Positions 241 to 58,098 of a DNA stretch of 64,000 bases are shown one piece after another. Source of the stretch: Candidatus Iainarchaeum sp. (GTDB lineage Archaea > Iainarchaeota > Iainarchaeia > Iainarchaeales > DTGL01). The notes under the pieces were generated by a model. That model was not told the origin of the DNA, searched no databases, and saw nothing but the letters and a program-made list of their open reading frames with translations. The position numbers and the translations under genes are program-made. Position 1 is the first letter of the stretch. Each line of letters begins with the position of its first letter. The DNA lies in contig JAWANJ010000001.1 in the NCBI GenBank assembly GCA_038895395.1, positions 298 through 64,297 of the forward strand. The letters are read 5' to 3'.

Positions 241-623
241 AATATCACCTTGGCTTTATCAGCGTCAACTGTTACAAACATGCCATTTTTTATTTTCCCT
301 ATCCTTACTTTATCAACGCAGGGTATTTCTGACAATATAGCACCTGCTGCAACTATAGCCTCACATTCTGCTAATACCATAGCAGCCGGCGCTTTGTTGT
401 TTTTCTTTAATCGATATATTGTATAGGTCCCTACTGTAGAACCTTTTCCATGTGGAAATACTAAAACTTTATCCGCAATACATTTTCCTTCAAGCTCATG
501 TCCTTTTTCTATAACTATGCCTGTTTCTGGATCCACACCACCAAAGAATGATATTGGCTGTTTAGTAACTAAGCACTCACCCTTGACTTTTCCAGAAGCT
601 ATCGTACGACCTTTTAAAATCAT
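237..623 (-). CDS. aconitase X small subunit-like (phosphomevalonate dehydratase small subunit, DUF126 family)
   Basis: 128-aa ORF directly downstream of the AcnX catalytic subunit with a 4-nt overlap. Size and operon position match the two-subunit AcnX-type mevalonate-5-phosphate dehydratase. Confidence 0.55.
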   Translation of the reverse strand: MILKGRTIASGKVKGECLVTKQPISFFGGVDPETGIVIEKGHELEGKCIADKVLVFPHGKGSTVGTYTIYRLKKNNKAPAAMVLAECEAIVAAGAILSEIPCVDKVRIGKIKNGMFVTVDADKAKVIF

Positions 624-1795
624 TTTATCGCCTCTTCAATGCACTCTTTTAATGATGCTATTCTAACCTTGAAATTGTTAGAACCCCTACCATAAAAACA
701 TGCCTTTGCAGAATTTGTCAACATATAGCCAAACCTGTTTTTAAGTGGAGCCACGGCTATGCATGTGTCACATATGATTTTTGCGCCTGCTTTTTCAATA
801 ATTTCAGTGTAGCCCATTGAATCAGCGATTTTTTTAACAGGCCTTGCACAAGTTATCCAAAACTCTTTTTTCACTTTTTTTCCTTTTAGCTCTTTTGCAA
901 TCTCACGTATTTCAACAATAGATGCGTGTGGACAACCTATTGCTATTAAATCAACGCTACCAGAATCACTTAAGGATTTTTTTGCTTTTTCAATATCCTT
1001 TCTTGTTATGTACACTTCTTTTTTCGGTGGCTTCACATTTTCAGGGGTTATATTTTCCATATGAAAAAGAGCGGTACCGCCAAAAGTTGCTATGGAAGCA
1101 CAAAAACTCTTAAGCTCATCTAAGCTAGCATGGCTTATGCCTTTAATGTAGGGTATTGAATTACCAATTTTTTCACCCAATGCTTTGCCAAATGCACCAA
1201 AGTCAGCCACGCCTGAAAGCTCAGCCTTTACCAAAACAGAGTACTTTGGCTTGCGATTTTTATCAAGATGAAAACCATATTCTGGTGTTTTGCCTGTAAG
1301 TGCACTAGCCAAACTTGAAAATCCGCTTTCTCTGTTAGTTCTAGCGCCGAGTACAGAGTTTGCGAAGCAAACAGCACTGCTCTCACTCCATGCTATATGA
1401 GAGCCATACTTTGGAATATTCCCTATCAAGTAAGGCGTGCAAGTACATGTGACTATTACCCCCATCTTCTTGAAAGCCTCTAAGATACGTTCTTGCTTTT
1501 CGACAAAATTTTTATCTATGCCTAGATTTTGCCAGTTTTCTAGATCTATGCCAGCGGGGTTTAAAGTTGTAAGTGGAACTCTTACCTTAGCGTCTTGGGC
1601 GAGTTCTTCAAGCAAGCTAAGGCCAGCGTCTCCCAGGTTTTGGTAACTAACGCCAGCAATCTGCACACTTTCAACTGGTATGAGTCTTTTTGCTGAGTAT
1701 ATGTTACCAAGTGCAACAAGCAGTTCCATTGCCTTTTTCGCAGCTTTTCCGTGTTTACCTTTAAGATATTCCTTTTCTTCGAAGCTTAGTTTCAT
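620..1795 (-). CDS. aconitase X catalytic (large) subunit-like; putative mevalonate 5-phosphate dehydratase
   Basis: 391-aa ORF embedded between the UbiD-like decarboxylase and the small-subunit gene inside the mevalonate operon. This is the architecture expected for archaeal AcnX (DUF521) phosphomevalonate dehydratase. Confidence 0.6.
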   Translation of the reverse strand: MKLSFEEKEYLKGKHGKAAKKAMELLVALGNIYSAKRLIPVESVQIAGVSYQNLGDAGLSLLEELAQDAKVRVPLTTLNPAGIDLENWQNLGIDKNFVEKQERILEAFKKMGVIVTCTCTPYLIGNIPKYGSHIAWSESSAVCFANSVLGARTNRESGFSSLASALTGKTPEYGFHLDKNRKPKYSVLVKAELSGVADFGAFGKALGEKIGNSIPYIKGISHASLDELKSFCASIATFGGTALFHMENITPENVKPPKKEVYITRKDIEKAKKSLSDSGSVDLIAIGCPHASIVEIREIAKELKGKKVKKEFWITCARPVKKIADSMGYTEIIEKAGAKIICDTCIAVAPLKNRFGYMLTNSAKACFYGRGSNNFKVRIASLKECIEEAIK

Positions 1796-3111
1796 TTCTT
1801 TTCACCAAGATATTTTTTAAGATCTACCTTTTCATAAGACACTCTCTTAAAATCATCCTTATTTTTGTTGGCGGGTATTGTGAGGTCGAACCCAACCTTG
1901 CATGTTATTCTGGTTTTTTGATCTGCGCTAGGATCAAGACTTGAGCCTTTTTGACCAGGATAGATATATAGTTGCTTGTCAGCTTGGAATCTAGTAGCTA
2001 AGGCCCATTCAACATCTTGCATGTTGTTTGCATCAATATCCTCATCTACAACAAAAACATGCTTGAGTGAACTATGACCTTTGAAAGCAGCTTTGACTAC
2101 TTTTTTTATTTGTTCATCATTTTCTTTGCGTATTTGTACTACAGCATGAAGCCATGAACAACCACCTTGCGTTATGTTTACATTTATGCATTTAGCAACT
2201 TTGTTAACTTCGTTAAATATTGTTGGTTCTCTTGGCATGCCCATAAGCAAGCCATGCTCATTACCACCAGGAAGAAGCGCATGCCAGATAGCATTTTTTC
2301 TGTGTGTTATTTTTTTTACTTTTAGAATAGGTTGCTTTCTAACAAGGTCCCTTGTACCAGTTAAGTCCAGAAACATACCTTCATTGGCAAGTTCATTCAT
2401 AGTAAGGGTGCCCTCAATAACAAACTCAGAGCTTGCCGGAACGTAAACATTTGCGAATTTTGCTTTTACAACATTAAAATCTTCTAAAGCGCTTGCAATT
2501 TCAAATTCAAATTGACCTATTGGTGGGCTGGTTGCACCAGCAAGTAGAACACTTGCTGGATTACCTATACAAACAGCAACGTCAAGCTCTCCGCCAGCTC
2601 TATTCAAAAATTCATATAGATTACGTTCGCAAACCCTTACTGAAAAATTCTTTTTGTCAAGCTGCATACATCTGTGAAATGATGCGTTCATTCCAAGTTC
2701 TTTGTCACGTGCAACGAAAACGCCAGATGTTATGTAGTTTCCACCATCGATTTTTGTATGCTTTAAAATTGGAAGTTTGTCAAGATCTATTTCTTCATCT
2801 TCAATTACAACCTCCTGACAAGGACCTTTCTTTGAAACCTTGAGCTTTTTTGGTTTATTTAGAGCATCAACCAGGATTCTTATTAGATCTTTTTCCTTGC
2901 AGTTAAAATATTTTGAGATGTAACGTTTTGATGAGAAAACATTTCCGGCAATCATAAAGTTGGATTCTCGAATATTTTCGAAAAGCACTGGTTTTCCATC
3001 TAATGCTTTTAGCACAGCTGCAGCTTCTAAATTTTTTGATACAGGCCTACTTATTTTTATTAGATCCCCCTCTTTTTCGAGTTTTTTTAAGAAGCTCCTA
3101 AAGTCCATCAT
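1792..3111 (-). CDS. UbiD-family decarboxylase; putative trans-anhydromevalonate 5-phosphate decarboxylase
   Basis: 439-aa ORF of UbiD size and character, located immediately downstream of UbiX (14-nt overlap) and upstream of AcnX in the mevalonate operon. Confidence 0.7.
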   Translation of the reverse strand: MMDFRSFLKKLEKEGDLIKISRPVSKNLEAAAVLKALDGKPVLFENIRESNFMIAGNVFSSKRYISKYFNCKEKDLIRILVDALNKPKKLKVSKKGPCQEVVIEDEEIDLDKLPILKHTKIDGGNYITSGVFVARDKELGMNASFHRCMQLDKKNFSVRVCERNLYEFLNRAGGELDVAVCIGNPASVLLAGATSPPIGQFEFEIASALEDFNVVKAKFANVYVPASSEFVIEGTLTMNELANEGMFLDLTGTRDLVRKQPILKVKKITHRKNAIWHALLPGGNEHGLLMGMPREPTIFNEVNKVAKCINVNITQGGCSWLHAVVQIRKENDEQIKKVVKAAFKGHSSLKHVFVVDEDIDANNMQDVEWALATRFQADKQLYIYPGQKGSSLDPSADQKTRITCKVGFDLTIPANKNKDDFKRVSYEKVDLKKYLGEKK

Positions 3112-3646
3112 CCCACCTCTTATACAGGTTATTTTTTACTCCAAGCAGATCAAGTATTTTGCCAACTATAAATGCTTCTAGGTCAGCAATGCTGCGTGGT
3201 TTAGAATAAAACCCAGGAGATAATGGAAATACAACTGCTCCATAAAGGGATATCTCATAGAGGTTCTTAAGCGTTGGTGGGCTCAGCGGAGTTTCCCTTA
3301 TGCAAACAATCAGCTTTTTTTTCTGTCGTAGCATGTTATCGGCACACCTAGCAATAAGAGTATCGGTATGTGCATTGGCTATATCACTAACTGTTTTTAC
3401 ACTAGCTGGAATGATTACCATAGCGTCTGTTATAAAACTAGAGCTAGATATGGAAGCTCCCAAATCATTGTTGTCGTGCATCTTTGACGCGTACCTTTCT
3501 AAGTTAGGCGCTTCTATTTCAGAAACTTTTTTAGACCATTCTGACATCACAAGGTGGGTTTCAATTTTTCTTTTTTTAAGTTCTTTGAGAAGCAACTTTG
3601 TATAGTTTAAACCACTTGCACCACATGCTGCAATTATTATTCGCAT
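3098..3646 (-). CDS. ubiX: UbiX-type flavin prenyltransferase (prFMN synthase)
   Basis: 182 aa. N-terminus MRIIIAACGASG... is the typical flavoprotein fold of the UbiX/Pad1 family. Adjacent to the UbiD-like gene. Confidence 0.8.
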   Translation of the reverse strand: MRIIIAACGASGLNYTKLLLKELKKRKIETHLVMSEWSKKVSEIEAPNLERYASKMHDNNDLGASISSSSFITDAMVIIPASVKTVSDIANAHTDTLIARCADNMLRQKKKLIVCIRETPLSPPTLKNLYEISLYGAVVFPLSPGFYSKPRSIADLEAFIVGKILDLLGVKNNLYKRWDDGL

Positions 3647-4629
3647 TCCTTGACACCCTCCACACCTATTTTAGTTATTATTGCTTGTGCCCCTGTTGAT
3701 TCTATGGCTTTTGCTATTTTTTTCTCTGTTCCATTTTTTGCTAGAGCAAACATTACACCGCCCCAGCCACCACCACTTAGCTTAGCGCCAAGAGCACCCG
3801 CATTTAAAGCTTCTTTTATGCAGTCATCGAGCTTTGGATGACTCAGGCCTAGTTTAGAAAGTATCTTTTGATTTTTGTTCATAAGCGAACCTAGTAAAGG
3901 TTCATCTTCCGTTTGAAGAGCTTTTTCTATTGAATTGCAAATCAAAGCAATCTTTTTGAATTGCTTCTGGACAAATTCAGGATATCTTCGAATTAAAGAG
4001 GGCATGTGCATACCAACGGTAAGAGCTGTTGGAGCTCTTATATTGGTGTTTCCTATAACAACACTAAATCTATGTACCCCAAGGTTTTCAAAGCTGAGAG
4101 AAATTTTGCCTTCTGATCCAATCTTTTGAATCTTGTGATAGCCACCAAAAGAGCTTGAAAGAATCTCACTGCCGGAAGCTTTACCACCATGTACCTTAAC
4201 TTGAAGAGGATAAAGATATTTGAAAAAATCTTCTTTTTTTATACCAAAATCAAAAAGAAGATTTAATGCATGTAGAGATGCACTTAGCACAGCAGTGCTT
4301 GAGCTAAGACCAGACTCAACAGGAACATCAGATTCTATGCTTAGCCTAATGCCTCTTTTAATACCATGTTTTTTAATCAGGATCTCAATTAAGTCAAAAA
4401 AGATGTATAACTCCTTTTTACCGTGTCTGTTCAAAACTTTTTCGGATTTTAAGGATGCCTTGGCTTTACCAAGCTCTCTGCTTTCCACTATGATTGATCT
4501 ACTTTTTAAAATTGAGGCTGTGCAATATGCTCTTAGGTCAACTGCGGTCACTACTGCCGGATAACCATAAACGACAGCATGCTCACCAGCAAAAAATATA
4601 TTTCCTGGAGCACTCGCCTTTACAGACAC
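3637..4629 (-). CDS. mvk: mevalonate kinase (GHMP kinase)
   Basis: 330 aa. N-terminal SAPGNIFFAGEHAVVYG matches the MVK motif APGKxxLFGEHAVVYG. GHMP-kinase Gly-rich ATP loop (LSSSTAV) is present. Confidence 0.8.
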   Translation of the reverse strand: MSVKASAPGNIFFAGEHAVVYGYPAVVTAVDLRAYCTASILKSRSIIVESRELGKAKASLKSEKVLNRHGKKELYIFFDLIEILIKKHGIKRGIRLSIESDVPVESGLSSSTAVLSASLHALNLLFDFGIKKEDFFKYLYPLQVKVHGGKASGSEILSSSFGGYHKIQKIGSEGKISLSFENLGVHRFSVVIGNTNIRAPTALTVGMHMPSLIRRYPEFVQKQFKKIALICNSIEKALQTEDEPLLGSLMNKNQKILSKLGLSHPKLDDCIKEALNAGALGAKLSGGGWGGVMFALAKNGTEKKIAKAIESTGAQAIITKIGVEGVKECE

Positions 4630-4655
4630 TTTAGAAACCTCTTTGATTGATAATA

Positions 4656-5057
4656 TTAACTTATAACTTTGAATTTATAACCATAGGTAATAGTGCCATA
4701 TTTGTCTGGTTCACCTACTCTCCTAAAAACCTTTTTTACTTTTGCACCAATCTTTATAGCTTCTGGTTCGGAGTCAACTATTTGTGCTAAAACCCTTGCT
4801 TTGTTTTCTAGCTCTATTAGGGCTAGGTAGTATGGCACCTCGTTTTTGAAACCTTCTGGTGGCACATATACTCTAGTGTAGCTTATTATTTTGCCAAACC
4901 TAGGCATATCCATTTGAACAAGTTTGCCTTTTCTTCTACAGTTGGGACATATTGCTCTGGGCGGGAAAAAAGCTTGCTTGCAGACTTCACAGTAGTTTCC
5001 TCTCAACAAGTATCTTTCAGGAAATCTTCTCCAGTTGAGAGGTGCAACGTTTTGCAC
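4656..5057 (-). CDS. DUF35 OB-fold/Zn-ribbon protein (scaffold partner of thiolase/HMG-CoA synthase)
   Basis: 133 aa with CxxC...CxxC ribbon (CEVCKQAFFPPRAICPNCRRKG). Sits 4 nt downstream of the thiolase, which is the conserved archaeal thiolase-HMGCS-DUF35 triad. Confidence 0.75.
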   Translation of the reverse strand: MQNVAPLNWRRFPERYLLRGNYCEVCKQAFFPPRAICPNCRRKGKLVQMDMPRFGKIISYTRVYVPPEGFKNEVPYYLALIELENKARVLAQIVDSEPEAIKIGAKVKKVFRRVGEPDKYGTITYGYKFKVIS

Positions 5058-5061
5058 AATA

Positions 5062-6231
5062 TCACCCTTTGAATTTTTTATAAATTGTTACAACCGCTGT
5101 AGCACCTGAACCACCGACATTGTGGCTCAAACCTATCTTTGCTTTTTTCACTTGGCGTTCCTCAGCCATCCCCATTAGCTGGTAATAGGCTTCGACTGCT
5201 TGAGCTACACCAGTAGCGCCAACGGGGTGTCCTTTTCCTTTTAGCCCACCACTTGGGTTTATAGGAATCTTTCCTTTAAGCGAGGTATATCCTTTTTCTG
5301 TTGCAATACCACCTTCACCTTTTTCAAAGAAACCAAGATCTTCAATTGCTAAGATCTCCGCTATTGTAAAACAATCATGCACTTCTGCAAAGTCAATATC
5401 CTTTGGGCTTAGCCCTGTTTTTTTGTACGCTTTTTGTGCAGCCATTCTTGTGGCTTTTAGCTCCACCAAACTTTTCCTTCCAGTTATGGCCAAGGTATCT
5501 GAAGCTTGTTCTGATGCAAGTATTTCAACGCCTTTAAGGCCGAGTTCTTCAGCTTTTTGGTTTGAACATAAAATAAGTGCTGCTGCTCCATCCGTTATTG
5601 GTGAACAATCTAGCACTTTTATTGGTTCTGCTACATATCCTGACTTCATAACTTCTTCTATGGTTATTATGCGATGGAACTGTGCATTGGGGTTTAGCAT
5701 TGCATTTGCGTGGTTTTTAACAGCTACAGCTGCCATTTGTTCTTCGGTTGTGCCAAACTCATTCATATGCGCTCTTGCTAAAAGCGCATACAAACTTGGA
5801 AAAGTAGCACCGTGAAAGAGCTCAATCTCTTGGTCTCCTGCGCCACCTAAAGCAAAGCTAACTCCTTCTGTGCTAAGCTCAGTCATCTTTTCAACACCAC
5901 CAACAGCAACAATATCATGGACACCACTTTTTATTGCGAGATAAGCAGTCCTTAATGCAACACCACCAGAAGCACACGCTGCTTCGACTCTTGTACTAGG
6001 TATTGGATTTAAACCAAGCTGGTCTGCTATCAAAGCACCTATGTGCTCCTGCCCTATGAATCTCCCTGATGCCATACAACCGCCATAAATAGCTTCAATT
6101 TTTTCTCCTTGAAGGCCTGAGCTGCTTATTGCCTTTATTGCTGCATCTAGTATAAGTTCCCTAAACGATAGATCCCAGTGTTCATCAAATTTTGTAACAC
6201 CGGCCCCAACTATTACCACCATTTTATTCAC
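5062..6231 (-). CDS. acetyl-CoA C-acetyltransferase (acetoacetyl-CoA thiolase)
   Basis: 389 aa, archaeal thiolase (SCP-x-type) fold with active-site cysteines. Immediately downstream of HMG-CoA synthase. Confidence 0.85.
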   Translation of the reverse strand: MNKMVVIVGAGVTKFDEHWDLSFRELILDAAIKAISSSGLQGEKIEAIYGGCMASGRFIGQEHIGALIADQLGLNPIPSTRVEAACASGGVALRTAYLAIKSGVHDIVAVGGVEKMTELSTEGVSFALGGAGDQEIELFHGATFPSLYALLARAHMNEFGTTEEQMAAVAVKNHANAMLNPNAQFHRIITIEEVMKSGYVAEPIKVLDCSPITDGAAALILCSNQKAEELGLKGVEILASEQASDTLAITGRKSLVELKATRMAAQKAYKKTGLSPKDIDFAEVHDCFTIAEILAIEDLGFFEKGEGGIATEKGYTSLKGKIPINPSGGLKGKGHPVGATGVAQAVEAYYQLMGMAEERQVKKAKIGLSHNVGGSGATAVVTIYKKFKG

Positions 6232-7272
6232 CTACAAACTTTTTATCTTTCGTCTGTGTTTAAGATATATCGCATAGTCAATATACTCTTTTTCTTTTAT
6301 CATCTCAAGCACAGGTATTTTTGCTCTACGCTCAGAGATAGCATCAGTGGTGTTTATAACAAAAGCATCACTGCCAGCACCACTTCCATAGCTAACAGCA
6401 AGTATTTTTTGACCTGGCTTTGCAATATCAAGAATGCTTGCTAAGCCTATCATGGTAGCACCGCTGTATGTATTTCCTATGTAAGGTGTTAGCAAACCTT
6501 GTTCTATTTTTTTTGAATCTATTCCAAGAATGCTAGCAACCTTTAAAGGAAATTTTCCATTTGGCTGATGAAAAACAGCATAGTCAAAATCGGATGCTTT
6601 ATAACCAGTATCTTCAAGGATCATCTTGGCTGCACCCAAAACATGTTTGAAGTAAGCCTCTGCTGTAAATCTGCCTGTATGCTCAGGAAAATCTGCTTTT
6701 GGTCTACGCCAAAAATCAGGCATGTCACTTGTGTAGCTGCAGGTTGCCTCAATTTCGGCAATGACCTCATCTTTGTTATCGCCTATGAAAAAGGCACCAG
6801 CACCACTTGCAGCTGTAAATTCTAAAGCATCGTTTGGTTTGCTTTGGGCTGTGTCAGAACCTATGGCTAAGCCAACATCAATCATCTTTGCTTTTTTTAA
6901 TGCATAGCATATTTGCATACCAGCAGTACCTGCTTTACAAGCAAACTCAAGGTCAACAGCAAAGTATCTGTTTGTTGTACCTATGGCATCACCTACGATG
7001 CTAGAAGTTGGGTTAACTGCGTAGGGGTGACTTTCAGAACCAACATAAATTGCATTAATTCTTTTTGGATCTATAGAGAAGTCTTCTATGCCACGTCTTG
7101 CTGCCTCAACTGCTAAAGTGCATGCATCTTCGTCTATAGCAGCGACAGCTTTTTCATAAACACCAATCCCACCAGAACTCTTTTGCCATACTCGCTCGAT
7201 TTCGCTAACTTTTATTCTTAATTTAGGTATATATGCGCCATACCCAATAATTCCAACGACCATCTCAAGCAC
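6232..7272 (-). CDS. hydroxymethylglutaryl-CoA synthase
   Basis: 346 aa. N-terminal MVVGIIGYGAYIPKLRIKVSEI is typical of archaeal HMGCS. Overlaps the HMGR stop by 8 nt. Confidence 0.85.
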   Translation of the reverse strand: MLEMVVGIIGYGAYIPKLRIKVSEIERVWQKSSGGIGVYEKAVAAIDEDACTLAVEAARRGIEDFSIDPKRINAIYVGSESHPYAVNPTSSIVGDAIGTTNRYFAVDLEFACKAGTAGMQICYALKKAKMIDVGLAIGSDTAQSKPNDALEFTAASGAGAFFIGDNKDEVIAEIEATCSYTSDMPDFWRRPKADFPEHTGRFTAEAYFKHVLGAAKMILEDTGYKASDFDYAVFHQPNGKFPLKVASILGIDSKKIEQGLLTPYIGNTYSGATMIGLASILDIAKPGQKILAVSYGSGAGSDAFVINTTDAISERRAKIPVLEMIKEKEYIDYAIYLKHRRKIKSL

Positions 7273-8530
7273 CTTGCTTAATTTTTTTCAGGATTTCTCT
7301 TGCAAATGCCTCATTTATTTGGTTATTTTCAATCATGGCCATGGCGACCTTTTCTATTTCGTCTCCTGTTGCACCAGCTTGAATTGCTATGTTTTTGGCA
7401 TGAAGTCGCATATGACCATATTGGATTCCTGTTGTTGCGAGAGCGTAGAGTGCAGCAAAATTTTGAGCTAAACCAACAGCACCCATAACTTCTGCAAGTT
7501 CTTTTGCACTTTTTACCCCCAATATCTTTAAGCACAATTTTGCCATTGGATTTACCCTTGTTGAGCCACCCACTATACCAACTTGAATAGGTATTTCAAT
7601 TTCGCCAACCAAGTTGCCTTGTTTATCTTTCCAGTATTTTGTTAGTGGTTTATATTTACCCGACAGGCTAGCATAGCTATGAGCTCCGGCTTCTAAAGCT
7701 CTGAAATCATTTCCAGTAGCTATTGCTACAGCGTCAATGCCATTCATTATACCCTTGTTGTGTGTTGTTGCCCTAAAGCGATCAGCACAAGCAAATTTCC
7801 AAGCTTTTATTATATCTTCCACCACTCCCTTAGAGGAATCTTTTTCTAGCTCTACCTTGGAAAAAACAGCCCTTGCTTTAACCAGTCTATAGATGGCAAG
7901 ATTTGATATTATTTTAATGCCTGTCTTACATTTACAAATCTGTTCTATGTAAGGTGCTACACGCTCACACATTGTATTTATAGCATTTGCACCCATCGCA
8001 TCTTTGACATCAACTAGCAAATGCAAAACCATGAATTCCTTAAATCTCCTGATTTCTATATCTTTTGCACCACCGCCATAAGAAACAAGTATCTTATCTG
8101 TTGAATTTGCAATTTCCAATATCTTTTCTTTGTTCTGTTTTATTAACCTGGTAACCTTTTGCTGTTTGCTGCCCTTTGCAAAGATTTGTACTTGTCCAAT
8201 CATGATTTGCTCTGTTGCTTTAGATTCAAAACCTCCTAAAAACCTAGCAAACTTTGCACCCTTGCTTGCTGCAGCAACAACACTTGTTTCTTCTATGGCC
8301 ATTGGCACAAGATAGTCCTTTCCGTTTATTAGAAAATGGGTTGCAATGCCCAATGGCAAACCAAAAATGCCGACAACATTTTCAATCATCTTGTCTGCTA
8401 TTTGAAAGCTAATAGGTTTAAGTTCTTTAAGCAATGTGACCTCTTCTTCTGAAAGCCCACACACATATTTTAATATTTGAAGCCTTTCTTCAAAAGTTTT
8501 ATTATAAAAACCACTTATTTTAGAACCCAT
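7265..8530 (-). CDS. hmgA: HMG-CoA reductase (class I)
   Basis: 421 aa, class-I-like HMGR in length and character (specific catalytic motifs not traced), first gene of the operon. An archaeal TATA-like element (reverse complement of ~8570-8585) lies upstream. Confidence 0.85.
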   Translation of the reverse strand: MGSKISGFYNKTFEERLQILKYVCGLSEEEVTLLKELKPISFQIADKMIENVVGIFGLPLGIATHFLINGKDYLVPMAIEETSVVAAASKGAKFARFLGGFESKATEQIMIGQVQIFAKGSKQQKVTRLIKQNKEKILEIANSTDKILVSYGGGAKDIEIRRFKEFMVLHLLVDVKDAMGANAINTMCERVAPYIEQICKCKTGIKIISNLAIYRLVKARAVFSKVELEKDSSKGVVEDIIKAWKFACADRFRATTHNKGIMNGIDAVAIATGNDFRALEAGAHSYASLSGKYKPLTKYWKDKQGNLVGEIEIPIQVGIVGGSTRVNPMAKLCLKILGVKSAKELAEVMGAVGLAQNFAALYALATTGIQYGHMRLHAKNIAIQAGATGDEIEKVAMAMIENNQINEAFAREILKKIKQGA

Positions 8531-8785: not shown

Positions 8786-9520
8786 ATGGTGCATGTGATG
8801 CCAAAAATCATAGGCAACAAACCCAAGTTTTATGAAAAAGCTAGGGCTTGGTATAAAAAACAAGGCAAGATAGATGTGCCTGGCTTTAAAAGGATTGAAA
8901 TCAAAAACAATAAGAACAGTCTTTTAGTGGTTTTTAATGGCAAGCGTTATGAGCTTAGGAAGTTTGGTCAAGGTTACGCCAACATATTAAGAAAAAAACC
9001 AATATATACATTTGTATCTGAACAAGGACGCATTTTAGTTGTTACAGAGTTTCTCCATAAAACACTCACAAAAGAACTTGTTCTTGAAATTGACGCATAC
9101 CATGCTGATTTACTTGCTGGGGACGTTGGTTTTAGAAGATTGTTGCATACAAACGTAAACATAATACTAGATCTTGAGATAGCGTACGATAGTTACTTCT
9201 ACTGGTGTCAGGGCGTTAACAAAAAACATTTAACAGGGCAAGCACCTGAATGGCTTAAAGGCAAAGGGTTTGGTTTGTTTGTAGAGTCTCTAAGACAAAT
9301 TAGGCTAGCAAAGCTTGGTGTTAGTAAATGGTTTGCTTCAATAATACCTGAAAAAGAAAGTTTGGAATTTGCTGAGCTTAGAGGTTTTCGTAAGCCAACT
9401 TTGGAAGAGATACTTTTGCTAGCGAAAGCAACATTGCGAAAGGAGCCTGACAAACGTACAATAAGACAAATGTTGAAAATCTATCATGTGAAAGACATTC
9501 CACCAATAAAAGGCAAATGA
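8786..9520 (+). CDS. hypothetical protein (244 aa), no recognisable motif
   Basis: Long ORF with coding-like composition, ending 4 nt before the ThyX-like gene. No catalytic motif identified. Confidence 0.4.
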   Translation: MVHVMPKIIGNKPKFYEKARAWYKKQGKIDVPGFKRIEIKNNKNSLLVVFNGKRYELRKFGQGYANILRKKPIYTFVSEQGRILVVTEFLHKTLTKELVLEIDAYHADLLAGDVGFRRLLHTNVNIILDLEIAYDSYFYWCQGVNKKHLTGQAPEWLKGKGFGLFVESLRQIRLAKLGVSKWFASIIPEKESLEFAELRGFRKPTLEEILLLAKATLRKEPDKRTIRQMLKIYHVKDIPPIKGK

Positions 9521-9524
9521 TTTT

Positions 9525-11045
9525 TTGAGGTGTTTTGGTATGTTTTATTCTGATGATGATAAAAAAATTTTGGAAAATTTTGTAACAAACCTTGACAAGA
9601 ATATTTATATCGTACACAATCTGCCGCCAGAGGTTGTTTCAGTGCTATTTGCTTATGTTAGCAGATCTCCAGAGAGCTTTAGGACAAATCTTTTGAAATT
9701 GGTTAAAGAAGGAAACTTAGATTTGCATACTGGAGAAAAAAGCAAGGAGGTTGTTTTAGAAAAAGCAATAAAAAAAGCCTCCGATTTTCAAAGGAAATGG
9801 GTTGTTGGCTTTGGCCATTTTAGCATAGCTGAGCATGCAGTAGTTCATATTGCAATAGAAAACATAAGCATACTTGCTACCAAGATATTGGAAGACAATA
9901 GGCTTGCAAGTTATACGGAAAAAAGCACAAGATATCAAAAATTTGATAGAAACACTTATTACAAACCAAAAAAAATAATTGAGTCGAAATATGGCAAAAA
10001 CTATGAGGAAACCCTAAACGGTTTATTCGATTTTTATGTTGAGAGTTTCCCTGTTGTTGAAAACTATTTCAAAGAGAAATATCCTAAAAAGGAAGAGATG
10101 AGCGAGCAATATTATGCTTCTTATATAAAGTCAAAAGCTTGTGATGTTCTTAGATACTTGCTTCCAACTGCAACGCTCACTAATTTAGGTGCAACTTTCA
10201 ATGCAAGATCTCTTGCTCACGCTATAGAAAAATTATTGTCGCATCCACTAGAAGAAGCTCAGCAAATTGGACAAGATATAAAAGCCGAGGCTACGAAAAT
10301 TATGCCAACACTTGGTGGTTTTGCTGAGAAAAGCACATACATTCAAGAAACTACAAGAGGGCTTCAAGAGTTGGCCAAAAGTGAGATTTCAATGAAATCA
10401 GGTAAAAGGTCTTTAAAAAAACACAATGAAAACAAGGTAAAATTGGTTAACTATACATTGGATGCTGAAGAAAGACTTATAGCTGCAATTATGTATAAGT
10501 TTGTTGATCTACCTTATCAAAAAGTTTTGGAAAAAGTTAAGAAGATGGACAACAAAAAGAAAAAGATTGTTTTTGAAGAATTTTTTAAAAGGATCTCTAA
10601 CAAAGATGCGCCGTTAAGGGAGCTTGAACATTCATTCTACACTTTTGAGATCACAGTTGATTATGGTGCATATAGAGATCTGCAAAGACACAGGATGTGT
10701 ACTCAAACAACACAAATGTTAACAACCAAGCATGGTTTTTGCATTCCAGAAGAGATGAAAAATTTAGGGCTTGAGAAGGAGTTTGTTGATCACATGAAAA
10801 AGGCCAATGAATTATACTTTTCATTGGTTGATGAGTTCCCATATGAAGCTCAATATTGCGTACCGCTTGCATTTAGAAACCGGACAATCTTTACAATGAA
10901 CGCTAGAGAGCTATACCACATAATAAGGCTTAGGTCTGGCAAGGCAGGCCATAAAAGCTACAGAAAAGTTGCTCAGCAGATGTACTTTGAACTACAAAAA
11001 GCACAGCCATTGATTGCGAAATACTTTGCGGTTGATTTGAGCTAA
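9525..11045 (+). CDS. thyX: FAD-dependent thymidylate synthase ThyX, tandemly duplicated (pseudo-dimeric); N-terminal copy degenerate
   Basis: 506 aa, twice the normal ThyX length. The C-terminal half has RHR (DLQRHRMCTQ) and the downstream MNARELYHIIRLRS...AHKSYRKVAQQM ThyX signature. The N-terminal half has GHFSIAEHAVVHIAIENIS and ...NARSLAHAIEKL but with RHR replaced by EDNRLAS. Confidence 0.55.
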   Translation: MRCFGMFYSDDDKKILENFVTNLDKNIYIVHNLPPEVVSVLFAYVSRSPESFRTNLLKLVKEGNLDLHTGEKSKEVVLEKAIKKASDFQRKWVVGFGHFSIAEHAVVHIAIENISILATKILEDNRLASYTEKSTRYQKFDRNTYYKPKKIIESKYGKNYEETLNGLFDFYVESFPVVENYFKEKYPKKEEMSEQYYASYIKSKACDVLRYLLPTATLTNLGATFNARSLAHAIEKLLSHPLEEAQQIGQDIKAEATKIMPTLGGFAEKSTYIQETTRGLQELAKSEISMKSGKRSLKKHNENKVKLVNYTLDAEERLIAAIMYKFVDLPYQKVLEKVKKMDNKKKKIVFEEFFKRISNKDAPLRELEHSFYTFEITVDYGAYRDLQRHRMCTQTTQMLTTKHGFCIPEEMKNLGLEKEFVDHMKKANELYFSLVDEFPYEAQYCVPLAFRNRTIFTMNARELYHIIRLRSGKAGHKSYRKVAQQMYFELQKAQPLIAKYFAVDLS

Positions 11046-11055
11046 CTTATTTAAC

Positions 11056-13332
11056 TTATTTTCTTGCTAACAAATCCGCGTAGTACTGTTTACATTCCAA
11101 TCTCCAGTTCACTGTAAGAACTATTTTTATTCCATCACCCGTGTAAGCCACATTTATATCCTTATCAGATAGTTTATCACACATTGATGCTCCAGTTCCG
11201 CTATAGAAACCATAGTTAGCATAGCATTGTGGCACTTCGTAGATAAAGTAATACTCTTTTGTAGAGGTATATTTTGCCATATTTTCTTCGGTGAATTTTT
11301 TCAGGGCTTCACACAATGGAAGGATATTTTTTGCAGTGTTGGGATCGTAACCGTAGTAAGTTAAAATCCTGCTCAAGCAATATTGCTTAACCGTCAAATC
11401 AGTGGTGTCAGTAAGGCAGCTTTGCACCTTCGCTTCTATGTTTACGTCCTTTGGTGTGACTGTTGGAGATGGCGTTATCGTATAGTAGCCAAATGAAGGA
11501 TAGCATGATGTTTTATCGCATTTCTTGCCTATGCAGACGTTAAGGTATATTGTGCCATAGTCGCTCAGGTTGCTTTCAACATCTGCTGAGACTTTCTTTA
11601 TTTCCCCGGGTTTTATTTCATAGAAGCCAATGTTTTTGTCGAAAATGATATTTTTCCTATAGTAGTCTGAATAGCCCTTTATTGTCAGGTCTCCAGAATA
11701 ATCTTTTGTAGCATATTTGTTATTTAACCTAAAACTTATGTTGTTTTTGTCGCAAGTCAAGTTGTCTATATAAAAGTAGTTGTACGAATAGCTAGTGCTA
11801 CAATAACCATATTTGACACATTCATCTTCAATGCAAACCTCAAGGGACTCGGAGCCAAAAAGCGTGGTGTTTGGGTTAAACTCAAAGCGTTTCTCTTTGT
11901 ATGATTTTAATGAAACATACCCCAGGTCCTTTTCTACTAAAGTTTCACCTGAAAAGCCATCTTTGAGTTTTGCCTTCAAAGTGCCTTGCATTTCCGAGTA
12001 TGGATACAGCACAAAGGAAACATTTTCATCGCTGCAGCTTGCAGAATATATAGTAAATGTGTAAGTGTAGGGGGAGATATAACAACCGTAGCTCCTGCCC
12101 TTTTGGCATTTGTCGCCTACGCACAACTGGACTTCTTTTGAGCCTTCAGACAAATTTTTATCTGGAACAATCTTAAAGTCCCTGGATTCAAATGCTTTTA
12201 GGCTTATTTCACCAAGGTTCTTCTCAAGTTCGATATTTGAGTCAGCCCCATTTGAAGAGTACTCATCATAGTATAGCCAACTAGAGTATCTTAAAAGAGT
12301 TAGCTTTGCCTGCCCTCTTAGATCTTCTAAGGCGGTTAGCTTTATGGAGATCTGTTTTTTGCTGCAGTTTGCATCTATTAAAAAGGGTACTGGGGGCTTC
12401 AAATCTTGCTCATTAACTTTGCCAAACTCTATTTTTTTCAGTTCAAACTTTAATGACATCTCCATCGGCTTTTTTAGACCTTTCATCTTTATAGAAAAGT
12501 TGGAATCCATTAAAGCTAAAATCCCGTGCTCTTTGTCGAGGCAAACCTCGGCGTTAAACTTTATTTCCTCATAAATTGAATCCTTCTCATAGTTGACATC
12601 TGAAAGTAAAGAAAAACCAGTAGGAAACTTTGGCTGTTCCTGTGTTAATGAATTGCTGCTATTTGCTGCTGCCAAATATGCGCTACTGCTAAGCAGCGGG
12701 ACATTTATATCCTTGCCACTGTAAGAAATTGCGTAGCATCTTGTATTCCTTTCAGCTATTTTTTTCTCATTGATAAAAGAGATATTATAATCTGTCTTTT
12801 TTGTCAAATCTGTGCTTTGGGCCATCTTCGATGGGTCAAATGCTGAGTAATAATCTTCCTTGCCAATTTGGCATTCCCATGTACTTTCTTTTGTTGGGCT
12901 GTGTGTTCCATTAATTGATGCATATCTTGTCTTTTGGCAGGTGATTGATTTGTCGTTTATCAGATAAACTTCAGTTTCAGTTTCGATACTGAGAAAACTC
13001 ACAATCAAACTGGTTTTATTTTGTGATCTTGAGAGGTGAGTTTGTGTTATATCAAAACTATAATTAAGGGCCATGCCAGGGCCATATCCTAAATATCCTA
13101 AACTACTAAAGATGTTTTGGTTTTGCATTGAAAGAGACATTATATAATCTGCTTTGTAGGGCGGCGCATCAAGACCTTTTTGTGAAAGCGCTTTGTATTC
13201 TTCTTCAACGCTCATTGGTTTTGGAAGTATAATTTCTCTTAGCTCAGGGATAAGAAATAATGCAGAAATAGCTGCTGCTGAGATAATTATTAAAACAACC
13301 AAAACAATTAATTCTACCCTCATAAAATCCAC
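11056..13332 (-). CDS. secreted/membrane-anchored Cys-rich surface protein with three internal repeats and many N-glycosylation sequons
   Basis: N-terminal hydrophobic anchor (LIVLVVLIIISAAAISALFLI). More than 12 N-x-S/T sequons. Three ~110-aa repeats each containing C-x(2,3)-C-x(n)-C-x-C-like patterns (LCVGDKCQKGRSYGCY..., LEVCIEDECVKYGYCST..., LNVCIGKKCDKTSCYP...). Confidence 0.6.
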   Translation of the reverse strand: MDFMRVELIVLVVLIIISAAAISALFLIPELREIILPKPMSVEEEYKALSQKGLDAPPYKADYIMSLSMQNQNIFSSLGYLGYGPGMALNYSFDITQTHLSRSQNKTSLIVSFLSIETETEVYLINDKSITCQKTRYASINGTHSPTKESTWECQIGKEDYYSAFDPSKMAQSTDLTKKTDYNISFINEKKIAERNTRCYAISYSGKDINVPLLSSSAYLAAANSSNSLTQEQPKFPTGFSLLSDVNYEKDSIYEEIKFNAEVCLDKEHGILALMDSNFSIKMKGLKKPMEMSLKFELKKIEFGKVNEQDLKPPVPFLIDANCSKKQISIKLTALEDLRGQAKLTLLRYSSWLYYDEYSSNGADSNIELEKNLGEISLKAFESRDFKIVPDKNLSEGSKEVQLCVGDKCQKGRSYGCYISPYTYTFTIYSASCSDENVSFVLYPYSEMQGTLKAKLKDGFSGETLVEKDLGYVSLKSYKEKRFEFNPNTTLFGSESLEVCIEDECVKYGYCSTSYSYNYFYIDNLTCDKNNISFRLNNKYATKDYSGDLTIKGYSDYYRKNIIFDKNIGFYEIKPGEIKKVSADVESNLSDYGTIYLNVCIGKKCDKTSCYPSFGYYTITPSPTVTPKDVNIEAKVQSCLTDTTDLTVKQYCLSRILTYYGYDPNTAKNILPLCEALKKFTEENMAKYTSTKEYYFIYEVPQCYANYGFYSGTGASMCDKLSDKDINVAYTGDGIKIVLTVNWRLECKQYYADLLARK

Positions 13333-13468
13333 CCGCTATTTTTTTTACATTGGATTAAAACACATAATTTAATTGTAAACTTATATAAAAAAGTTTCAAT
13401 GATTGGTGCTCTCACAAGCTGTAATCAAAAGGAATAAAAAGCAAACAACACATAAATAAATAGTAACG

Positions 13469-14260
13469 GTGACTTTTATGGGGGAGATTGTCTCTATTAT
13501 TTCTGGTAAGGGTGGGGTTGGCAAAACAACTGTTGCATTGAACCTCGCATCTGCTTTTAACAAGAAGGGCTACAATACTCTTGTTTTTGATGGAAACGTT
13601 ACAAGCCCAACAGGTGCACTTTATTTGGGATATTTGCCTGCCGAAAAAACAATAAATAATGTACTAAAAGGAGAACTTGAGCTTGGCGGCGCAATCTTAA
13701 CGCATGACTCTGGTGTTAAGCTTTTGACATGTAGCTTGGGCCTAGCAGATCTTAAAAGTGACTATAGAAGAGCCTTTGGACTATTAAGGGAGTTAAAAAG
13801 AAACTATGATATTATATTTATAGATGCCGGTGCTGGCCTAGATGAAGAAGCTCAAATGGCTATAGAAGCAAGCGACTATGTTATTGTAGTCACAAATCCT
13901 GAGCTTCCTGCAACTATAGATGCATTAAGGGCTGTGAGATTAGCAAGGGCTTTTAACAAGAAGGTTCTTGGGGTTATTGTCAATAAGGTAAACTATGGAC
14001 GCCCACAGTTACCTGTTGCAGAAGTTGGTAGCATTGCAGAAGCTCCAGTGATTGGTAGCGTAGTTGAAGATGATGCAGTACAAGAGGCTTTCGCATATAA
14101 TCAACCTGTTGTACATATGAGGCCATATGCTAGAGCTAGTGCTGACTTTATGAACATAGCCGCAAAGATCTTAGGAGAAAAAGAAAGCCACAAAAGCAGG
14201 GTATTGATAGATAGAATTTCTTTCTGGCTCCATAAGATTGGGTTAAAATACTTGCCATAG
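13469..14260 (+). CDS. minD: MinD/ParA-family P-loop ATPase
   Basis: Deviant Walker A GKGGVGKTT at the N-terminus. 263 aa. Confidence 0.8.
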   Translation: MTFMGEIVSIISGKGGVGKTTVALNLASAFNKKGYNTLVFDGNVTSPTGALYLGYLPAEKTINNVLKGELELGGAILTHDSGVKLLTCSLGLADLKSDYRRAFGLLRELKRNYDIIFIDAGAGLDEEAQMAIEASDYVIVVTNPELPATIDALRAVRLARAFNKKVLGVIVNKVNYGRPQLPVAEVGSIAEAPVIGSVVEDDAVQEAFAYNQPVVHMRPYARASADFMNIAAKILGEKESHKSRVLIDRISFWLHKIGLKYLP

Positions 14261-18090: not shown

Positions 18091-19155
18091 TTATATATCT
18101 CTGTTTATAGCAAAATCAGCAAATGCTTTAAGCTCTTGCTTGCCATCATTATTTGGAATTTTTTTGTCAATTTTGGCCCAAGCTTTTTTAACTATGGTTC
18201 TGGCTTTATTTATTGAATAATATATAGCACCTGATTTTTTAATCAAAGCTATTGCTCTTAGAATTTTGTCTTTATCCTTTGTGTGCAAGTTTAGTATTTG
18301 CTCAAGCTCTTCAGCTTCTTTTTTAGGTAAATTTTGAAATGCTTTTATTACTAAAAGCGTGCGTTTACCTTCGCTTATGTCTTCGCCTATTTCTTTCCCC
18401 CAATCTGTGCTTTTTGGAGCAATATTCAAAATATCATCTTGTATCTGAAAGGCAACACCTAGAGCCTCACCAAAATTGCCCAATGCTTCGATTTGGGTTT
18501 TTTTAGCATTGGCAAGCACAGCACCTAACTTTGCAGCAAATCTAGCCAAAACACCAGTCTTGTAAGCACACATTTGAAGATAAGCGGATTCGCTAATAAC
18601 CTTGCTTTTACCTTTATGCCACCATATGTCCATTGCCTGTCCAACACTAAGGCGAAGCATTTCTTGGGCATAAATATTGTATATTTTAATAATCTTTTTT
18701 TCTGGTAGATTATATTTGTTGTTATACAGAATTTCAAGCGGTATGAAGTACATGGCGTTGCCAGTGTTAACAGCACAGTCGATGCCGTATATTTTATGCA
18801 TTGCTGGCTTTCCACGCCTTAAATCTGCATTATCTTCAACATCATCCACAAGCAAAGTACCTTCATGTACAAACTCAATTAGCGGTGCAAATTTAACTGC
18901 AAGTTCCTCTGGGCCATTAAGAGCTTTGCAAGCAGAAATCATAAGTGCTGGTCGCCAGCGTTTGCCCCCTCTGTTTAGAAATTCCCAAACTTGATCTGTC
19001 AGGCCTTCTTGTATGGTCTTTGTATCATAGCAATATTTTGGTTCACCAAGAGCTCTTTTAACCCAAAACTTTGCACTTTTTGGAAAAACATTTTCAAGTT
19101 CTTTGTCAATTGCTTTTTTCTTTTCAGATATTATATCCATGGCATCTAAAGTCAT
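18091..19155 (-). CDS. (all-E) polyprenyl diphosphate synthase (GGPP synthase-type)
   Basis: First DDxxD-type motif LLVDDVEDNADLRRG and second FQIQDDILN are present. Confidence 0.85.
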   Translation of the reverse strand: MTLDAMDIISEKKKAIDKELENVFPKSAKFWVKRALGEPKYCYDTKTIQEGLTDQVWEFLNRGGKRWRPALMISACKALNGPEELAVKFAPLIEFVHEGTLLVDDVEDNADLRRGKPAMHKIYGIDCAVNTGNAMYFIPLEILYNNKYNLPEKKIIKIYNIYAQEMLRLSVGQAMDIWWHKGKSKVISESAYLQMCAYKTGVLARFAAKLGAVLANAKKTQIEALGNFGEALGVAFQIQDDILNIAPKSTDWGKEIGEDISEGKRTLLVIKAFQNLPKKEAEELEQILNLHTKDKDKILRAIALIKKSGAIYYSINKARTIVKKAWAKIDKKIPNNDGKQELKAFADFAINRDI

Positions 19156-50364: not shown

Positions 50365-51159
50365 ATGAAAAAACTTGAAGAACATTTTGGCAGAGTCTAC
50401 AAATACATACTGGAAAAGATTGAAAGAAAAGAGGGGCTTGTTTTTCTTGTGATTGACCCTCCAAATCAAACACCTGAAACAGCCGGCTTTCTGGCAAAAA
50501 TTGCAGAGAGAGCTGGAATTTCTGCAATAAGCGTAGGTGGCTCAATAGGAGCACAAGGAACATTGCTTGATGACACTATATCAGCAATAAAAGAAAACTG
50601 CAATATACCTGTTATACTTTTTCCAGGAAATATAGCAACTTTATCATCTAAAGCAGACGCGATCTATTTTATGAGCATGCTTAATTCCCTTGATCCTTAC
50701 TATATAAGCGGGGCTCAAATAGCTTCAAGTTACCCTGTTAAAAAATCAGGATTAGAAGTTATACCAACATCTTATGTACTTATTGAGCCTGGGAGAGCAG
50801 CTGGCTGGGTTGGAAGGGCCAAGCTCATCCCGAGAGATATGCCTTATTTGGCAGCATATACTGCCTTAGCAGGGCAATACATGGGTTCTCACATCGTTAT
50901 ACTCGAAGCTGGTGGTGGCGCCAAAGAACATGTGCCACTAGCAATGATTTCAGAAACAAGAGCAACAGTAGACATCCCTATTGTTGTTGCAGGTGGGATA
51001 AAAACAAGCAAACAGGCTTATAACTGTATAAAAGCTGGTGCAGATATAATACACGTGGGAGCAATAATTGAAAAATTGTCTAATGATCCAAAAAAAGCAG
51101 AAAAACACATGCAAAGCCTAGTCAATGCTGCAAAAAATGCAGCAAAAGTTAGAAAATAA
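50365..51159 (+). CDS. geranylgeranylglyceryl phosphate synthase (PcrB/GGGPS family)
   Basis: TIM-barrel PcrB-like sequence with ...VILEAGGGAKEHV... and ...IVVAGGIKT... phosphate-binding segments. 264 aa. Confidence 0.75.
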   Translation: MKKLEEHFGRVYKYILEKIERKEGLVFLVIDPPNQTPETAGFLAKIAERAGISAISVGGSIGAQGTLLDDTISAIKENCNIPVILFPGNIATLSSKADAIYFMSMLNSLDPYYISGAQIASSYPVKKSGLEVIPTSYVLIEPGRAAGWVGRAKLIPRDMPYLAAYTALAGQYMGSHIVILEAGGGAKEHVPLAMISETRATVDIPIVVAGGIKTSKQAYNCIKAGADIIHVGAIIEKLSNDPKKAEKHMQSLVNAAKNAAKVRK

Positions 51160-57757: not shown

Positions 57758-58098
57758 AGGAAGAGATGCGCATAGTTGCCTTGAATCGAATCCACAAACT
57801 TTTTGAACAAGCTGAAAAAAATTTTACTCAAAGGCCTGACAGAAGCAAGCGTTATGTTGAACTTGCAAGAAAAATAGCAATGCGCCATAATATTAAATTT
57901 GATGTTAAGCTTAAAAAAAAGTTTTGTAAAAAATGCGGTGCATATCTTGTAATTGGAAAAAACGCAAAGATCAGAGTTTCTGGAAGATTATTAAAGATAA
58001 CATGTTGCGAGTGTAACTTCACGAGAAAAATTGGGTTAAAAGAGAAAAAGAGCACTAAAGATGTCGGGAAAAACATACGAAATAACGATCCCAAATAA
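57733..58098 (+). CDS. rnp4: RNase P protein component 4 (Rpp21/Rpr2)
   Basis: ...RYVELARKIAMRHNIKF...CKKCGAYLVIGKNAKIRVSGRLLKITCCECNF, the Rpr2 Zn-ribbon signature. Confidence 0.7.
   Translation: MAKEKISMKEEMRIVALNRIHKLFEQAEKNFTQRPDRSKRYVELARKIAMRHNIKFDVKLKKKFCKKCGAYLVIGKNAKIRVSGRLLKITCCECNFTRKIGLKEKKSTKDVGKNIRNNDPK

Follow-up and report, generated by a model that had tools for sequence, protein, structure and literature searches.

A lineage-restricted family of anchored surface proteins in Candidatus Iainarchaeum with a predicted LolA-like base, an Ig-like stalk and a recombining cysteine-rich head

The long minus-strand open reading frame (ORF) at 11056..13332 of a 64,000-nucleotide stretch of Candidatus Iainarchaeum sp. 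(contig JAWANJ010000001.1 of assembly GCA_038895395.1, positions 298 to 64,297; this whole stretch is called the window here) raises the question of what kind of surface protein it encodes and what such a protein would do in the envelope of a DPANN archaeon. An earlier note on this DNA had described a large, Cys-rich, heavily N-glycosylatable protein with three internal repeats, divergent from minD, and had offered an S-layer protein, an adhesin or a cell-cell contact protein as possible roles. To our knowledge, envelope building and the handling of surface lipids and partners are largely unknown in DPANN archaea, and we know of no DPANN surface protein with a demonstrated function. Here we describe the product as a modular protein whose base and stalk can be assigned to fold classes, from a family that is N-terminally anchored throughout and restricted to one lineage, and whose gene diverges fast and has been exchanged both as a whole and in its head. 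On balance we lean towards an envelope protein built as an anchored stalk and head, whose base is of a lipid-binding type and whose exposed tip can be exchanged; the architecture and topology of the protein are much more secure than the part of this model that concerns a ligand.

The Cys-rich ORF is a real gene, coding for 758 amino acids (aa) from a GTG at 13332 in the mechanical ORF list, or 755 aa from the start preferred below, with 22 cysteines (2.9 %) that are all invariant in the orthologues. Residues are numbered in the 758-aa form unless marked. The product divides into the following parts, where Ig and FN3 stand for immunoglobulin and fibronectin type III:

13246..13320, minus strand: N-terminal hydrophobic segment, aa 5-29, a probable uncleaved signal-anchor
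12385..13221, minus strand: N-domain, aa 38-316, modelled as a LolA/LolB/RseB/LprG-like unclosed antiparallel beta-barrel with an N-terminal helix
12061..12384, minus strand: repeat 1 (R1), aa 317-424, 7-strand Ig/FN3-like beta-sandwich with Cys 323, 404, 409 and 417
11779..12060, minus strand: repeat 2 (R2), aa 425-518, Ig/FN3-like with Cys 433, 500, 505 and 511
11485..11778, minus strand: repeat 3 (R3), aa 519-616, Ig/FN3-like with Cys 527, 600, 605 and 610
11059..11457, minus strand: C-module, aa 626-758, mostly helical, about 130 aa, with Cys 639, 652, 674, 703, 718 and 747

The three repeats (108, 94 and 98 aa) keep their Cys spacing, and their pairwise Smith-Waterman scores of 114, 92 and 86 compare with about 29 +/- 5 for shuffled sequences (z = 16, 12 and 10; 0/500 shuffles reach them). 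The repeats noticed before are thus significant in every pair, and neither the sequence preceding aa 317 nor that following aa 616 is related to them. In the models, R1 and R3 each come out as a 7-strand Ig/FN3-like sandwich of about 100 aa, R3 with a predicted local distance difference test score (pLDDT) of 72-84 in the full-length model, and the query has no match to the Ig/FN3 Pfam families. A short Pro/Thr linker (aa 617-625) joins R3 to the C-module, which is marked by six invariant Cys and a V-P-x-C-Y-A motif and recurs in other Iainarchaeum proteins, in single form or as 2-3 tandem copies. The earlier description therefore holds for the repeats, but it missed this six-Cys module and also the largest domain, the LolA/LprG/RseB-like barrel of aa 38-316.

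The assignment of this N-domain comes from modelling. AlphaFold2 (AF2), run on aa 38-424 with a 17-sequence alignment, gave a mean pLDDT of 75.1 and a predicted template modelling score (pTM) of 0.75, with core strands mostly at 80-95 and the five models within 2.4 units of each other. The modelled N-domain consists of one N-terminal helix and about 11 long strands, and it shows what characterises the LolA/LolB/LppX fold, namely an unclosed antiparallel beta-barrel with helical elements at its open face. With this model Foldseek retrieves LprG, including the forms bound to phosphatidylinositol mannoside (PIM) and triacylglyceride, at probability 1.00, and VioE at TMt 0.61. An independent full-length AF2 model from 4 sequences is poor (pLDDT 44.8), with only R3 and the C-module partly confident, yet it also retrieves LprG, MucB, RseB and DUF1329. 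At the level of sequence, none of the LolA-clan Pfam families (LolA, LolB, MucB_RseB, LppX_LprAFG, DUF-type LolA-like) reaches E <= 10 with the query, and a LolA-clan match was found in none of the 17 family members. The domain has the conserved Cys 132, 154, 199 and 264 and, as motifs of its family, D-Y-N-I-S-F and C-L-D-K-E-H-G.

How is the protein held at the cell surface? The N-terminal anchor of the earlier note is confirmed as the single strongly hydrophobic segment of the query, at aa 5-29, with a 19-aa Kyte-Doolittle mean of up to 3.09. Every full-length relative begins with a hydrophobic stretch or a lipobox: there is either an equivalent stretch of about 22 aa (21-25) with a Pro after it, or a signal peptide that closes with L-A-G-C, F-A-G-C or F-T-G-C, as in six relatives (P0008, P0009, P0011, P0012, P0013 and P0015). 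Because two N-terminal tethers, one of transmembrane (TM) type and one a lipobox, are used interchangeably, there is good evidence from these sequences that the family is exported and kept on the outer face of the membrane. The query itself has no lipobox ([LVI][ASTVI][GAS]C) and its first Cys is aa 132, so that we rejected the status of a lipoprotein. A class III or pilin-type signal, taken as a [KR]-[GA] cleavage motif directly before the hydrophobic stretch, was rejected as well, since the N-terminus reads M-R-V-E-L-I-V-L... with no G/A at -1. Elsewhere in the window an A24-family prepilin/preflagellin peptidase gene (58036-58863, minus strand) adjoins the SRP54 gene (58865-60241, minus strand) so that the organism has type IV pilin-like processing, the surface protein itself being without a class III signal.

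Alternatively, a Sec signal peptide could be cleaved to release a soluble protein that, comparable to LolA, would carry hydrophobic molecules in the extracellular or pseudo-periplasmic space. A-x-A-type sites (S-A-A-A, I-S-A) can be read after a 10-residue hydrophobic core, and soluble carriers of LolA type rank high among the structural matches. However, the hydrophobic stretch measures 21-25 residues, with a Pro after it in every TM-type relative, and the alternative used by the family, the lipobox, is again a membrane tether. Membrane retention thus appears conserved, and we regard the soluble carrier as very unlikely.

The cysteines are the most conserved residues of the family. At 22-32 % identity, Cys 132, 154, 264, 323, 404 and 409 do not vary at all and Cys 199 hardly does. 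Because the 22 cysteines split into 4 in the N-domain, 3 x 4 in the repeats and 6 in the C-module, each module can pair its cysteines internally, and the protein is probably disulfide-stabilised. The disulfide-stabilised extracellular protein proposed before is therefore probable, given cysteines that stay invariant at about 25 % identity and a membrane-tethered export. As to glycosylation, the count of more than 12 N-x-S/T sequons was right: there are 13, against 6.4 +/- 2.2 in composition-preserving shuffles (12/2000 shuffles reach 13), and a density of 1.7 per 100 aa is the highest among the plausible large genes of the window. "Heavily N-glycosylatable" is nevertheless not a conserved trait, as only N183, N278 and N393 (3/13) are kept in both full-length orthologues and the density varies from 0.2 to 3.0 per 100 aa across the family. 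No other large ORF of the window has both a single N-terminal anchor and a long hydrophilic, extracytoplasmic-looking body, which agrees with the view that this is the only obviously exported large protein there.

The family is tiny and restricted to Candidatus Iainarchaeum/Diapherotrites, in line with the lineage-specificity that had been suspected. A search of 5.8 billion clustered proteins returned no more than three close homologues (81, 63 and, for a partial one, 90 % identity), the named ones from Candidatus Diapherotrites. An exhaustive search of 1.84 billion representatives with hidden Markov models (HMMs) returned 20 proteins, every named one again from Candidatus Diapherotrites. In 185,579 species-representative genomes, scanned with a 6-sequence alignment, four loci were detected, three of them titled Candidatus Iainarchaeum and one an unclassified archaeon, and a word-indexed search with a 17-sequence profile added almost nothing further. 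The query has no meaningful match in Pfam, NCBIfam or the PDB sequences; Pfam/NCBIfam scans of 10 relatives and the 17 alignment members gave no meaningful family, and the PDB sequences searched with two profiles gave nothing. Paralogues or stray modules were not found elsewhere in the window.

Module HMMs built from the orthologue alignment reveal a common plan of an anchor, an N-domain of about 270 aa, 1-3 repeats and 0-3 C-modules or other Cys-rich modules; these partner modules of the relatives are likewise of extracellular type. The N-domain, with invariant Cys, Gly and Pro, is the most widespread part (16/20 members). In P0014, P0019 and P0020 a C-module or N-domain is combined with a small Cys-rich module (C-x-D-S-D-x-G ... 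E-Y-Y-C ... G-C-x-D-G-A-C), and P0020 has in addition Asp-rich repeats resembling those of MopE and thrombospondin type 3. Such combinations suggest that the lineage has a toolkit of its own, made up of disulfide-rich extracellular modules. Locus L004 harbours two family paralogues 6 kb apart in one genome (1-1792 and 8001-9764): P0007 has the N-domain, 1 repeat and 2 C-modules, and P0006 the N-domain, 2 repeats and a different C-terminus.

The gene, its start and its neighbour are placed as follows, together with the tract of its recombination:

11056..13323, minus strand: coding sequence of the surface protein in its probable 755-aa form, stop codon 11056-11058
13329..13334, minus strand: Shine-Dalgarno-like GGGTGG, 5 nucleotides (nt) upstream of the ATG at 13323
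13381..13392, minus strand: TATA-like box TTTTTTATATAA, about 58 nt upstream of the ATG, read from the sequence as part of a putative promoter
13469..14260, plus strand: gene for a MinD/ParA/CbiA-family P-loop ATPase, divergent neighbour of the surface-protein gene
10980..13400, no strand: recombination island, 88-99 % nt identity to Candidatus Iainarchaeum contig JAWALG010000002.1 (L006) and 66-82 % outside it

Homologues start at M4 of the query in the alignment, and the ATG at 13323 has the GGGTGG motif (13334-13329) just upstream. Since the listed GTG at 13332 falls within this motif, the true product is most likely the 755-aa form (11056..13323). The TATA-like box sits in a 145-nt intergenic region common to the surface-protein gene and the MinD-like gene; the divergent arrangement with minD described before is correct. 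On the other side the ThyX gene is convergent, with stops 10 bp apart, in the window and in all syntenic loci. The order PPDK - MinD-like - surface protein - ThyX is kept in at least five other Iainarchaeum contigs. A functional coupling to MinD was nevertheless rejected, because the adjacency is found only in the TM-anchored clade and the lipobox relatives occur in unrelated contexts; it reflects the conserved locus of one clade and implies no functional link.

Does the gene share the history of this locus? The positional orthologue of L004 is only 31 % identical at the protein level, against 61-78 % for the neighbours, and has two repeats and a different C-terminus. Towards L006 the opposite is observed. 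A sliding comparison delimits a high-identity tract at about 10,980-13,400, that is the gene and its promoter, and the surface-protein gene has a synonymous divergence (dS) of 0.11 where MinD and ThyX have 1.7-2.4. The flanking genes give a tree in which L006 and L009 pair (94-95 %), followed by L005, then the window, then L004. The surface-protein gene departs from it, with 93.9 % identity for window-L006, where the genes on either side reach only 70-80 %, 85.9 % for window-L009 and 87.9 % for L006-L009. Resolved by module (here in 755-aa numbering), the identities are:

Promoter through R3: window-L006 91-94 %, window-L009 82-92 %, L006-L009 86-97 %, L009-L005 58-73 %
Linker and C-module: window-L006 97.2 %, window-L009 64.4 %, L006-L009 64.7 %, L009-L005 72.9 %

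Parsimony-informative sites for the topologies (L006,L009 / window,L005), (window,L006 / L009,L005) and (window,L009 / L006,L005), in this order, are distributed as follows:

MinD flank: 21:4:6
ThyX flank: 33:5:3
C-module: 1:70:1

Because these module identities and informative sites conflict with the flank tree, at least two lateral allele exchanges are needed, an older one from the promoter to R3 and a recent one (dS 0.011) of the head. The L006 allele is a mosaic which turns window-type at about 11,500-11,540, and this breakpoint lies at the conserved end of R3, C-I-G-K-x-C-D-K-T-S-C. The head of the window differs from that of L006 by 1 synonymous and 11 non-synonymous changes, which is suggestive of diversifying or relaxed selection without being significant. 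The surface-protein gene evolves fast and recombines, like surface proteins generally. The L006 copy (6001-8230) carries frameshifts near aa 8 and aa 296 and is annotated as two proteins, QW400_00455 and QW400_00460; either an assembly error or a decaying allele would account for them.

Two further observations concern the ThyX side of the locus. ThyX (9525-11045, plus strand) has 506 aa with two Thy1-domain stretches and appears to be a tandem-duplicated flavin-dependent thymidylate synthase, whose length is conserved in other Iainarchaeum contigs (495-498 aa); of the housekeeping neighbours it diverges fastest, at 61-66 % protein identity. A 244-aa ORF without a Pfam match (8786-9520, plus strand) separates HMG-CoA reductase from ThyX. 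In relatives its slot is filled by unrelated genes, namely 1-2 HAD hydrolases (L001, L009) or a DUF6438 protein (L004), and a 138-nt piece of it matches L008 elsewhere in position, so that 8786-9520 forms a second variable slot adjoining the surface-protein gene.

A different reading is an adhesin or cell-cell contact protein, in which the barrel would be only a scaffold or a non-lipid binding domain and the function would reside entirely in stalk and variable head. The Ig/FN3-like repeats do match adhesin repeat domains in the structure search, the head is exchanged by recombination, and DPANN surface proteins with Ig-like folds have generally been proposed to mediate cell-cell interaction (bioRxiv 10.1101/2023.10.27.564410). 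The LolA fold, moreover, has non-lipid uses in VioE and GerS (10.1101/2025.01.13.632879). What makes us consider this reading unlikely, if still worth keeping in mind, is the N-domain: its presence in 16/20 members with invariant Cys, Gly and Pro makes a passive spacer unlikely, and with a TM or lipid anchor just before it, it occupies the same place right at the membrane as in LprG, LppX and LolB.

The S-layer idea of the earlier note, taken either as an S-layer protein or as a SlaB-like anchoring stalk, gained no positive support from the domain scans. In general features the protein does resemble archaeal S-layer proteins, being large, exported, sequon-enriched, Ig-like, lineage-specific and fast-evolving (bioRxiv 10.1101/2023.10.27.564410); there is no experimentally determined DPANN S-layer protein that could be matched by sequence (bioRxiv 10.1101/2023.10.27.564410), and surface-layer genes are known hot spots of recombination and replacement (PMC4033161, PMC4535781). 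However, the Pfam/NCBIfam scans find no S-layer domains (S_layer_N/C, SlaA/SlaB-type, PGF-CTERM), and the anchor is N-terminal or a lipobox and not a C-terminal TM or PGF-CTERM. A lattice subunit would fit poorly with a repeat number of 1-3, varying C-terminal modules and paralogues 6 kb apart in one genome, and in addition the copy of the closest relative is frameshifted and the sequons are poorly conserved. We therefore think an S-layer role improbable.

The separate recombinational history of the C-module, which is absent or replaced in the L004 orthologue, leads to a further alternative, a polymorphic-toxin-like or VARTIG-like protein of self/non-self recognition with the C-module as variable effector or recognition cassette. 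The VARTIG module of Thermococcales (arCOG07710) is indeed comparable: there, too, an archaeal protein with Ig domains has a C-terminal part that recombination between lineages diversifies (PMC8416519). Unlike VARTIG, the surface protein has no linked variable downstream genes, its variable part is helical and Cys-rich and not Ig, and it belongs to a different lineage. An immunity or variable cassette is missing downstream in the window and in the syntenic genomes, where the convergent ThyX stop is only 10 bp away; other proteins contain the C-module in 2-3 tandem copies, unlike toxin domains; and the Pfam/NCBIfam scans gave no toxin-family match. Of all the readings weighed here this one seems to us the least credible.

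We thus return to the anchored stalk-and-head envelope protein. In this model the Sec pathway would export the protein, and its N-terminal hydrophobic helix would keep it fixed on the outside of the cytoplasmic membrane. The LolA/LprG/RseB-type unclosed barrel would follow about 12 residues past the anchor as a membrane-proximal base, and three disulfide-stapled Ig/FN3-like domains would form the stalk. Because the number of repeats varies from 1 to 3 among relatives, these domains may act as spacers which set the reach of the protein. The Pro/Thr linker would then lead to the six-cysteine helical head at the distal end, which may be the exposed contact surface, towards an outer envelope layer, another cell or a virus, and under pressure to vary. 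The N-terminally lipid-anchored LolA-fold proteins LprG, LppX and LolB bind lipid or lipid-linked ligands at the membrane, and by analogy with them the barrel might bind a hydrophobic or lipid-linked ligand on the membrane of its own cell; an archaeal lipid or glycolipid, a glycan linked to polyprenyl and the anchor of a lipoprotein are candidates.

Where would such a ligand come from? The window contains a contiguous archaeal-type mevalonate cluster (620-8530, minus strand) with genes for AcnX, UbiD-like protein, UbiX-like flavoprotein, GHMP (mevalonate) kinase, thiolase, HMG-CoA synthase and HMG-CoA reductase, and elsewhere a polyprenyl synthase (18091-19155, minus strand) and a PcrB/GGGP-synthase-family enzyme (50365-51159, plus strand). 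As judged from these genes, the archaeon can apparently synthesise isoprenoid lipid precursors by itself. An endogenous ligand seems more plausible than lipid taken from a host, because the organism encodes its own mevalonate pathway, polyprenyl synthase and PcrB/GGGP-synthase-type enzyme and because the base is proximal. Scavenging of host lipid as a necessary role was rejected on the same grounds, the pathway being its own and the barrel proximal and not distal.

Several points weigh against this model or parts of it. The LolA-type assignment is at the level of fold only, as no LolA-clan Pfam or PDB sequence match was obtained even with the 17-sequence profile, and the same fold occurs in the amidase activator GerS (bioRxiv 10.1101/2025.01.13.632879) and, as the structural match indicates, in the enzyme VioE with its non-lipid role. 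The candidate A-x-A sites (S-A-A-A / I-S-A) would permit a cleaved Sec signal. The C-module is modelled with a pLDDT of about 60 and Foldseek finds no significant structural match for it. Positive selection on the head was rejected, as the count of 1:11 is too small (about P = 0.2 against neutrality), and the two frameshifts in the L006 copy make relaxed constraint there an alternative. Finally, all compared genomes are metagenome-assembled genomes or contigs, so that assembly chimerism could be thought of. The pattern of the island is, however, seen in two assemblies made independently (L006, L009), both of which differ from the window in sequence, and this makes a chimera unlikely.

Comparison with known systems places the protein between several groups. 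With the mycobacterial LprG and LppX (LppX_LprAFG family) and with LolB, lipid-anchored carriers of lipids and lipoproteins, it has in common a barrel directly behind the N-terminal tether on the outer face of the cytoplasmic membrane, and several family members likewise carry a lipobox. It differs from them in being archaeal and without detectable sequence similarity, in a larger barrel of about 280 aa that has long loops inserted and probably two disulfides, and in the fusion of the family barrel to 1-3 Ig-like domains and a Cys-rich head. RseB and MucB, periplasmic sigma-E stress sensors, have a large LolA-like N-domain too, but they are soluble and Gram-negative, possess another C-terminal domain and depend in function on RseA/MucA, a context which is absent around the surface protein.

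The Ig-like surface proteins of other DPANN archaea (Nanobdella aerobiophila MJ1_0160-type, N. equitans NEQ300) are similarly lineage-specific and exported, with several Ig-like folds, sequons and a TM helix, and were proposed to build the envelope or to contact hosts (bioRxiv 10.1101/2023.10.27.564410). There is, however, no homology, our searches returning Iainarchaeum proteins only, and neither a LolA-like base nor a six-Cys helical head has been described for them (bioRxiv 10.1101/2023.10.27.564410). Replacement flexible genomic islands such as the cell-wall island of Haloquadratum walsbyi resemble our locus in that a surface gene at a fixed position is replaced via homologous recombination in conserved flanks (PMC4033161, PMC4535781). 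In the present case, by contrast, the island is a single gene, a further breakpoint falls inside it where two domains meet, and the lineages involved differ by 20-30 % in the flanking genes.

In kind, parts of this are already known: lineage-specific exported Ig-repeat proteins are expected in DPANN genomes, and recombinational replacement of surface genes is familiar from prokaryotes (PMC4033161, PMC4535781). New are a predicted LolA-fold family in an archaeal lineage that is invisible to sequence methods, the fusion of the LolA-like fold to an Ig stalk and a previously undescribed six-Cys module, and an exchange of alleles, traceable module by module, between lineages whose flanking genes differ by 20-30 %. 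It is tempting to go further and see in the protein the first archaeal counterpart of LprG/LolB, in which contact by the head would be coupled to the extraction or insertion of a membrane lipid, a lipid-linked glycan or a lipoprotein anchor by the base. This is an analogy to which we give only a slim chance; if it were true, DPANN archaea would hold a dedicated device for moving hydrophobic molecules across the envelope or between cells. If the lipid link fails, an ordinary, well-delineated lineage-specific surface protein remains. In either case aa 38-316 offer a concrete expressible target with which to ask if LolA-fold proteins are at work on the ether-lipid membranes of archaea, and the gene- and module-sized tracts single out the head as what viruses, hosts or kin "see" of the cell.

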